Shown: positions 16,409 through 16,914 of the stretch, in pieces
How positions within the stretch are numbered: the stretch's first letter is position 1
Layout of the letters: every line of letters begins with the position of its first letter
From: a virus
Strand: one strand, 5' to 3'
Virus record (IMG/VR): IMGVR_UViG_3300015263_000944
Coordinates: 1 to 43,394 of that record
Length of the DNA: 43,394 nt
Made by a program: the position numbers and the translations under genes
The notes under the pieces: model-generated
What the model was told of the DNA's origin: nothing
The model's database searches: none
The model's input: the letters and a program-made list of their open reading frames with translations, nothing else

Positions 16409-16783
16409 TTATGCTGCTTCCTTGATACCTCCTTCCTCATGCTTGAGGAGTTGATACTTACGGAAGAGCGAACGCTTATCGTCGAACTCGTTGATCGGTT
16501 CGGTAGCGATGGCCGTAAGCTGATGATCCAGATCGGATTCGTAGAAGTGAACAAAGCGAACTTTGTTCTGGAACAGGTACTTTGTGACCCGTGCCAGTTT
16601 GGCTTCGTTCTTGGCTGCCAGCAGGACGATATGAGGATGATCTGGCAGATTGCCGAGATCAAACATCTTGGCAGCTTCAATGGCCGCATGAGAGCTTTGC
16701 ACGGCCTGTTGAGCGGGTGTAAGGTCTTGCCTTACAAAGATGTAAACGTAGTTCTTGTCGGACTCGTTGCAGTTCTACAACAT
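16409..16783 (-). CDS. PTH2-family peptidyl-tRNA hydrolase-like protein whose third codon is an in-frame TAG
   Basis: Track ORF 16409..16702 starts at GTG with QSSHAAIEA (what I recall as the PTH2 catalytic motif). The same frame continues upstream as ATG(16783-16781) TTG TAG(16777-16775) AAC TGC AAC GAG TCC GAC AAG AAC TAC GTT TAC ATC TTT GTA AGG CAA GAC. This restores a NYVYIFVRQDL beta-strand like the PTH2 N-terminus. Strong SD AGAAGGAGAAGGAAACC precedes the ATG. Confidence 0.5.
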
Positions 16784-16914
16784 GGTTTCCTTCTCCTTCT
16801 GAGGATTGTCATTTTGGCAGGTCACTTGCCTGCCGTAAGATATAGTAGCATCCTCCGTGCCAATTATCAACAGAAAAAATGGTGGGAGTCAGGAGTGCCC
16901 CGACCCCCGCCATT

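Follow-up and report, generated by a model that had tools for sequence, protein, structure and literature searches.

Stop-codon recoding in phages, of TAG or TGA, was reportedly described by Ivanova in 2014. Borges et al. (10.1101/2021.08.26.457843) proposed that in-frame stops delay translation until a suppressor tRNA has been made; their paper makes no mention of peptidyl-tRNA hydrolase. Iyer et al. 2021 (PMC7824862) reported peptidyl-tRNA hydrolases of the PTH2 type in jumbo phages and suggested a role in ribosome rescue, mentioning neither an in-frame stop nor a link to suppressor tRNAs. PTH2 in jumbo phages and suppressor-tRNA-dependent recoding in phages are thus already known. Here we describe a gene for a PTH2-fold protein in the IMG/VR virus record IMGVR_UViG_3300015263_000944 (positions 1 to 43,394, the whole stretch of 43,394 nucleotides (nt) that was analysed, called the window below). 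Its third codon is an in-frame TAG, the gate, and an amber-suppressor tRNA gene lies close by on the same strand. In open-access papers and bioRxiv we found no earlier account of PTH2-like genes that are gated by an N-terminal stop or linked to suppressor tRNAs. Our reading of the locus as a suppressor-gated PTH2-fold hydrolase, switched on by feed-forward and serving tRNA recycling, is given a probability of about 0.65.

Recoded phages are alike in needing a phage suppressor tRNA for open reading frames (ORFs) with in-frame stops. Their recoded stops are scattered, many of them in late genes, whereas here a single stop falls within the first ten or so codons of one to three small genes adjacent to tRNAs, and TAG still terminates other genes of the window. 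The prfB gene carries an early in-frame UGA that is passed by a +1 frameshift and senses the level of release factor. As at our locus, an early in-frame stop ties expression of a translation-related gene to stop decoding, but prfB needs the frameshift, while here the frame is unchanged and the matching tRNA is encoded next door. The lambda bar sites are stand-alone toxic minigenes of the form Shine-Dalgarno (SD)-AUG-NNN-stop, linked to peptidyl-tRNA hydrolysis by the host Pth. They share with the window gene this mini-ORF and the link to peptidyl-tRNA hydrolysis; here, however, a conserved protein is encoded in the continuing frame, and a suppressor tRNA with the anticodon for the stop lies nearby. 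Finally, a suppressor-tRNA feed-forward 'leak dampener' engineered in E. coli works (Ho et al., PMC7969014) and follows the same logic, with nonsense codons in the target and expression only with a co-regulated suppressor tRNA. That circuit is engineered, whereas the phage gate is natural, conserved across phages and bound to particular gene families.

The gated gene and its product

The mechanical ORF list starts the hydrolase gene at the GTG of the VQSSHAA motif, giving a product of 97 amino acids (aa). The sequence-only reading had noted this start and had continued the same frame upstream into ATG-TTG-TAG-AAC behind a strong SD. On the minus strand all of this is confirmed (Table 1), with AGAAGGAGAAGGA well placed for the upstream ATG. 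The codons after the TAG read AAC TGC AAC GAG TCC GAC AAG AAC TAC GTT TAC ATC TTT GTA AGG and onwards, so the 121 sense codons open with NCNESDKNYVYIFVRQDLTPAQQAVQSSHAA and the body translates as NCNESDKNYVYIFVRQDLTPAQQA-VQSSHAA. Between the gate TAG and the GTG no ATG, GTG or TTG occurs in this frame.

The automatic calls of the 97-aa form would suit a pseudogene, a sequencing error at the TAG, or a genuine product that starts at the GTG. The comparative sequence data effectively refute all three. An error at the TAG, which had been named as a possible refuter, is not supported, as a separate Joint Genome Institute (JGI) metagenome contig carries a sequence identical to the window gene and the gate recurs in dozens of diverged loci. 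Across five relatives, the 19-codon stretch that separates gate and GTG has synonymous differences (pS) of 0.39-1.12 against nonsynonymous differences (pN) of 0.02-0.13; by this comparison, the codons from the gate to the first canonical start are shown to be under purifying selection. The truncated form also loses strand β1, the conserved Arg and Asp, and the match to PTH2.

These losses can be placed on an AlphaFold2 model of the read-through protein (predicted local distance difference test 91.4, predicted template modelling (TM) score 0.84), in which β1 spans residues 8-15 and helix 1 residues 20-38, with the GTG at residue 25. β1 and the start of helix 1 both lie upstream of the GTG, which bears out the earlier claim that a GTG start removes the N-terminal strand. 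In a Foldseek search of the PDB, the best 12 matches (all E < 0.001, TM-score 0.58-0.67) were Pth2, as were 14 of the best 15; they include 3erj, 2zv3, 1q7s, 1wn2, 1xty and 1rlk. A family profile made from 30 homologues likewise matches the solved peptidyl-tRNA hydrolases 24bt (E 7e-7) and 2zv3 (E 0.008), and the PTH2-like identity first proposed from the letters of the gene stands. Pfam PTH2 (PF01981) matches the read-through form only, beginning at VYIFVR; the GTG form matches nothing, and several homologues have a precomputed PF01981 match. Since β1 lies upstream of the GTG and the structural matches are to Pth2, the model is assigned the PTH2 fold, whose structure here requires the first 24 residues.

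RxDL, Q..HA and D...(L)TA(I)A can be aligned with the corresponding motifs of canonical Pth2, and the Asp D81, which is nearly invariant, falls opposite the 'KDAG' Asp of 24bt. In Sulfolobus Pth2, the Asp of the DAG motif and a Lys from the loop that follows 'DL' belong to the active site. Members of the family are numerous: at E ≤ 1e-3 there are 4,142 representative clusters, and at E ≤ 1e-10 there are 1,656. The family is almost absent from cellular genomes: with a narrowed alignment as query, 185,579 GTDB species gave 4 matches, all on contigs of metagenome-assembled genomes.

Gates and suppressor tRNAs in relatives

A scan of IMG/VR returned 113 relatives, and 80 loci were kept, many of them from jumbo phages. 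We called a gate clean when the stop lay at most 25 codons before the conserved Arg and an ATG at most 10 codons upstream, with no ATG, GTG or TTG between. By automated tally, the 71 distinct loci comprise 39 clean gates, 9 ambiguous gates, and 23 ungated or fused genes. The SD-ATG-NNN-TAG layout, which had been proposed for a search in relatives, is thus present in generalized form in 39 (clean) to 48 (with the ambiguous gates) of the 71 distinct loci. The gated form consists of an SD, an ATG, one to nine codons, the stop, and then the conserved N-terminal strand, in loci down to ~30% protein identity; the two-codon leader is commonest (23/48). Examples are MRPDT-TAG-VHDKNYVYIFVRE in L002, followed by tRNA-TCA and tRNA-CTA, ML-TAA-NTNKNYVYIFVRE in L003, and MT-TAG-VQSDKNYVYIFVRE in L004, with further gates in L088, L090, L092 and many IMG/VR loci. 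Four gated contigs come from metagenome-assembled genomes. A double gate, MRPFQ-TAG-TKEEYG-TAG-DQHF-YVYILVR, was seen in L016/L017 (~4020..4092), with a tRNA-CTA ~400 nt away.

Wherever a clean gate had a suppressor tRNA within the fetched DNA, stop and anticodon agreed: TAG with CTA in 26 loci, TGA with TCA in 4, TAA with TTA in 1, and no discordant case (31/31). For TAG and TGA gates against CTA-only and TCA-only loci, our own arithmetic gives an exact chance of 1 in 23,751. Among ungated members, the first upstream stop showed no such association with the anticodon. The tRNAs are also closely linked to the gene. In a linkage survey of 89 loci, gated or not, 65 had a suppressor in the flank, which shared the strand of the gene in 64; the median gap to the gene was 430 nt, and in 20 loci the gap was 150 nt or less. 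The suppressor was the sole kind of tRNA in 32 loci and the nearest tRNA in 18 of the 23 loci with four or more tRNAs, while suppressors made up 71 of the 286 tRNAs overall.

No further in-frame stop occurs in the ~85-codon core of 39 of 43 gated genes, the exceptions being L015, L038, L048 and L092. The base after the gate stop is a purine in 43 of 48 cases. For terminator TAGs of the same loci the share is 54% (Fisher p 3.5e-5), and for the first positions of codons it is 62% (p 3.9e-5). Both gates of the window are TAG-A, and 4 of its 7 terminator TAGs are TAG-T. In E. coli, a purine 3' of the stop codon promotes nonsense suppression. The claim that the full-length enzyme needs amber suppression is supported by the present comparative evidence, with a tRNA(CUA) nearby, the stop-anticodon match and post-stop codons that evolve as coding. 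We consider it very probable that the suppressor tRNA decodes the gate.

The same data bear on whether ATG-TTG-TAG is a real mini-ORF or minigene, with the enzyme made by re-initiation or coupling and the released dipeptidyl-tRNA perhaps its substrate. The predominance of two-codon leaders suits this idea, as does the precedent of the two-codon lambda bar minigenes, which cause peptidyl-tRNA drop-off cleared by Pth. Yet no ATG, GTG or TTG stands between the stop and the conserved strand in the 39 clean loci, and the residues that directly follow the stop show conservation at the protein level. The match of stop and anticodon has no explanation under a mini-ORF, which would predict the opposite where the stop is reassigned; the same gate also occurs on unrelated cupin and HD-like genes. 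We regard this explanation as highly improbable.

The suppressor tRNAs that neighbour the gene are very diverse in sequence, and 3 of 60 have a long variable arm, so no single amino-acid identity was assigned to them. Some homologues show Gln at the gate (MLQN.., MTQV.., MPHTQN..), which would suggest that TAG is read as Gln; their DNA has TAG, and the proteins were called with code 15. These homologues (P0004, P0018 and P0022, loci L088-L093) each lie beside one or two tRNA-CTA genes. Judged by their DNA they are further gated examples and are uninformative on the inserted amino acid. In code-15 calls the in-frame stop goes unnoticed, which could lead alignments astray.

Two other RNA features were seen at these loci. 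In L033 (8256..8331) and L039 (6597..6674), tRNAs with an eight-base anticodon loop, labelled 'ccta' by ARAGORN, adjoin TAG-gated PTH2-like genes and may be four-base decoders or mis-folded CUA suppressors. Phage-encoded transfer-messenger RNA (tmRNA) genes lie a few kb from the PTH2-like gene and suppressor tRNA in L060, L063 and L081, which fits the ribosome-rescue theme of these regions.

Code use, cultured phages and neighbouring genes

If TAG were a plain sense codon throughout, as in recoded gut phages (code 15), the TAG at codon 3 would have no regulatory role. The phage does encode a CUA tRNA, some gene callers translate homologues with code 15, and the four exceptions named above have an extra internal in-frame stop. 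The window contains no late genes to check, its genes being early and metabolic (polymerase, clamp loader, phosphoadenosine phosphosulfate (PAPS) reductase, anti-restriction protein, carbamoyltransferase). Against a general sense codon, TAG ends 7 of the 43 minus-strand genes in the window, and no long ORF there is convincingly split by TAG; four minus-strand candidates for such a split were judged from ORF coordinates to overlap longer ORFs in other frames or ambiguous regions. A scan for an SD, an ATG, one to ten codons and a stop followed by a long open frame found two TAG cases in the 43 kb, the hydrolase gene and a cupin-like gene, and these, the only in-frame TAGs that were found, are both at codon 3. 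The 43 gated genes of relatives carry only 4 further in-frame stops in their cores. Recoded and standard loci could not be told apart by six-frame ORF coverage with each stop codon counted as sense, because spurious ORFs dominate. The window otherwise reads as standard code and the gate is a dedicated one, since TAG still ends genes there.

The gate is also present in cultured phages whose hosts use the standard code and whose long structural genes are intact. Salmonella phage Arash (OQ632216.1) has GAGGAatcatc ATG CTG TAG AAC.., the same ML-TAG-N as the window; its record annotates only a 50-aa 'peptidyl-tRNA hydrolase', and a tRNA labelled Phe (49176..49247), ~1 kb downstream of the gene, has the anticodon CUA. 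Read with the standard code, 100 kb of Arash is densely filled with uninterrupted genes, among them the terminase gene and structural genes 1,097 and 1,165 aa long. Of 116 long ORFs there, 10 terminate in TAG, and a convincing TAG gate was seen on the hydrolase gene alone. Acinetobacter phage ME3 reads MT-TAG-IHEN.., with the 'tRNA-OTHER, anticodon CTA' of its record ~430 nt upstream, Ralstonia phage RsoM2USA (MG752970.1, ~68868..69230) reads ML-TAG-ISDK.. with no coding sequence annotated, and Cronobacter phage GAP32 reads MAQ-TAG-NEK.. with a truncated coding sequence. The coding sequences of Arash, GAP32 and ME3 are cut back to downstream starts, as are metagenome calls. In Klebsiella phage RaK2 the hydrolase gene is ungated and has ordinary tRNAs on its flanks. 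On these grounds, code 15 with an idle codon-3 TAG is quite unlikely.

The second gated gene of the window encodes a cupin-like protein and lies 399 nt downstream of the suppressor tRNA. Its start reads GAGAGGAcaaa ATG TCG TAG AAC, with the SD GAGAGGA at 15532..15526, and the gene is likewise gated in L002 (ML-TAG-N) and L004 (MT-TAG-L). Its PHROG match, phrog_4786, is labelled 'cysteine dioxygenase'. In relatives, an uncharacterised H..HD..GK family (phrog_14850) adjoins the hydrolase gene and is fused to the hydrolase domain in L018, in ORF364 of XacN1 (L086) and in RAS14 (L101). An N-terminal TAG gate is present on the H..HD..GK gene in L005, L014, L018, L025, L058, L061, L077, XacN1 (MK-TAG-T) and RAS14; that of GAP32 has an internal TAG rather than an N-terminal gate. 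Neither the cupin nor the HD-like partner had a Pfam match.

On the minus strand the order is gated hydrolase, tRNA-like element, tRNA(CUA), gated cupin. The tRNA(CUA) is 416 nt downstream of the hydrolase gene on the same strand. The sequence-only reading had noticed neither this tRNA, nor the gated cupin gene, nor the wide spread of the module. ARAGORN labels it 'tRNA-Pyl', which reflects the anticodon only; the general tRNA model matches it from end to end, and its D and T arms are of the ordinary kind. No pyl gene was matched among the ten largest window ORFs scanned, and no search aimed at pyl genes was made. The tRNA-like element, which separates the suppressor tRNA from the hydrolase gene, is kept in L002 (6057..6200) and L004 (6252..6392), with inserts of 64-70 nt across the three and ARAGORN calls of Val-GAC or Val-UAC. 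The tRNA arms and an insert block, GGGACGCC, are conserved in all three; in the window copy the T stem is weak and position 33 is an A. A group I intron would need more length than the insert offers, and no significant Rfam match to the insert was obtained. No terminator-like site was seen between the hydrolase gene and the tRNAs in the window, and in many relatives a tRNA lies within 150 nt of the gene, which makes co-transcription of the hydrolase gene and the tRNAs likely. The motif CCGGCCA(G/T)AAACCGGACAT occurs twice on the minus strand (~16409..16370 and 16294..16265), the first copy extended by ATAACCGGAC three times; the copies flank a promoter-like site at 16332..16303, which lies between the hydrolase gene and the tRNAs, and are candidate operator sites.

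Upstream of the gene, the promoter is kept in an alignment of the closest relatives, L002, L004 and L089, as TTGAyw-TTGGCAC...TGCTAyTATA. The same three keep the motif CTGCCAnnnTGACA just 5' of the SD (16805..16818 in the window, minus strand). A hairpin spanning the AUG and TAG had a z-score of only -1.9 and seemed by eye unconserved in a few relatives, and it is given no role. Scanned against Rfam, 15500-16900 yielded the tRNA and no further known RNA, ribozymes included, and in a nucleotide search of a phage collection with window positions 15000-19000 only the tRNA matched.

Table 1. Coordinates of the gated hydrolase gene and of features around it in the window
Feature	Position	Strand	Description
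Terminator-like hairpin	16884..16908	-	11-pair stem, then ACCATTTTTT; closes upstream gene 16915..17124
Sigma-70-type promoter	16842..16870	-	TTGATA-17 nt-TACTAT, TG extension
Hairpin in 5' untranslated region	16813..16831	-	GGCAGG-caagtga-CCTGCC, then motif CTGCCAnnnTGACA
Shine-Dalgarno sequence	16788..16800	-	AGAAGGAGAAGGA; GGAG 9 nt 5' of ATG
PTH2-fold gene	16783..16409	-	124 codons, third = UAG
Two-codon leader (Met-Leu)	16778..16783	-	ATG 16783..16781, TTG 16780..16778
Gate, in-frame TAG	16775..16777	-	Codon 3; next base A (TAG-A)
PTH2-fold body	16412..16774	-	121 sense codons, NCNESDKNYVYIFVRQDL...GGIKEAA
GTG start chosen by ORF finders	16700..16702	-	Val25 of the post-TAG protein
Genuine stop, TAA	16409..16411	-	Ends the hydrolase gene
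tRNA-like gene	16041..16179	-	64-nt insertion in anticodon loop; ARAGORN, introns allowed
Amber-suppressor tRNA	15921..15992	-	Anticodon CUA; canonical cloverleaf; no encoded CCA; ARAGORN; Rfam tRNA model 67.7 bits
Cupin-like gene, gated	15108..15521	-	134 codons after gate; HDHPW motif; phrog_4786, E 3e-34

A proposed suppressor-dependent switch and its possible purpose

With the same gene-suppressor pairing in dozens of phages, the gate looks like a built-in translational switch and not a defect. From its own sigma-70-type promoter and strong SD, ribosomes would start at the AUG at 16783 and, with host factors alone, terminate after Met-Leu. Only when the UAG is decoded by the phage tRNA(CUA) would full-length protein be made. 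Enzyme output would then require two inputs, the mRNA and an active suppressor tRNA, which amounts to a coherent feed-forward gate. With the stop so near the gene start, the off state would cost a dipeptide only, and the 3' purine context would favour suppression over release. Across relatives, only decoding of the stop by the phage suppressor would carry translation beyond the first one to nine codons, and the cupin gene (15521..15108) would be gated in the same way.

As to purpose, the read-through, stalling and drop-off that suppression brings about would call for recycling of peptidyl- or N-blocked aminoacyl-tRNAs, and this would be the task of the enzyme, an extension of the ribosome-rescue idea of Iyer et al. 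The chances are roughly even that the protein cleaves the ester bond of such tRNAs and is co-activated with suppression to recycle those that are trapped, the suppressor included.

Several observations weigh against the suppressor-gated recycling hydrolase. About one third of the family is ungated and still lies beside suppressor tRNAs, suggesting that the gate is an added layer and not a requirement. Eight clean-gated loci have no suppressor tRNA within the fetched sequence. Wider TAG recoding of this phage's late genes, outside the window, is possible. The window protein has the fold and motifs of archaeal and eukaryotic Pth2 (PF01981), but the profile search that the sequence-only reading had proposed came out only partly in its favour: the match is confined to the read-through form, as predicted, and at 17.1 bits (E 0.0064) falls below the gathering cut-off of 23. 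The loop after 'DL' is also two residues shorter than in canonical Pth2, without the Lys/Gly-rich stretch and without any Lys, and the substrate may therefore differ. Given this divergent match, with a shorter Lys-free loop and an aligned 'DAG' Asp, catalytic equivalence to Pth2 is no more than plausible.

The suppressor could also read the gate for the sake of feedback, with the enzyme acting on the suppressor's own charged or peptidyl form. Deacylation would make suppression self-limiting, like a thermostat; recycling of the peptidyl-suppressor would make it self-reinforcing and produce a sharp, bistable code switch. Linkage of enzyme and suppressor is very tight even within large tRNA arrays, the single convincing gated target in 100 kb of Arash makes suppressor and enzyme look like a closed pair, and prfB is an established case of a gene, for RF2, that autoregulates through an early in-frame stop. 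Ungated members beside suppressor tRNAs, however, fit a self-limiting loop poorly, and the diversity of the suppressors, a few with a long variable arm, argues against a tRNA-specific enzyme. Feedback as the purpose is accordingly judged unlikely, though less so than code 15.

The suppressor-gated hydrolase may be part of something larger. We tentatively suggest, as a possibility we hold to be somewhat doubtful, that suppressor and gated PTH2-like gene, often with a gated HD-like or cupin gene, form a self-contained circuit in otherwise standard-code phages; in its strongest version the enzyme would act on the suppressor's own acylated or peptidyl form and so set or flip the level of read-through. 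The RsoM2USA paper reported one CUA suppressor and did not name a specific target, the XacN1 authors sought read-through of terminal ambers only and had no target for two CUA tRNAs, and in φKp24 a suppressor tRNA was likewise reported without a specific target gene. If true, the circuit would explain the 'orphan' suppressor tRNAs of XacN1 and RsoM2USA.

The module offers a concrete, conserved target for jumbo-phage suppressor tRNAs that lack named target genes, and it would be a natural feed-forward gate with logic equal to that of a designed synthetic circuit. It also exposes a systematic annotation error, in which the gene is truncated (Arash, GAP32, metagenome calls), omitted (RsoM2USA) or translated with code 15. 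The gated phages of Salmonella, Acinetobacter, Cronobacter and Ralstonia are tractable systems for studying how phages manipulate termination and recycle tRNA, and the gate module may yield portable regulatory parts.

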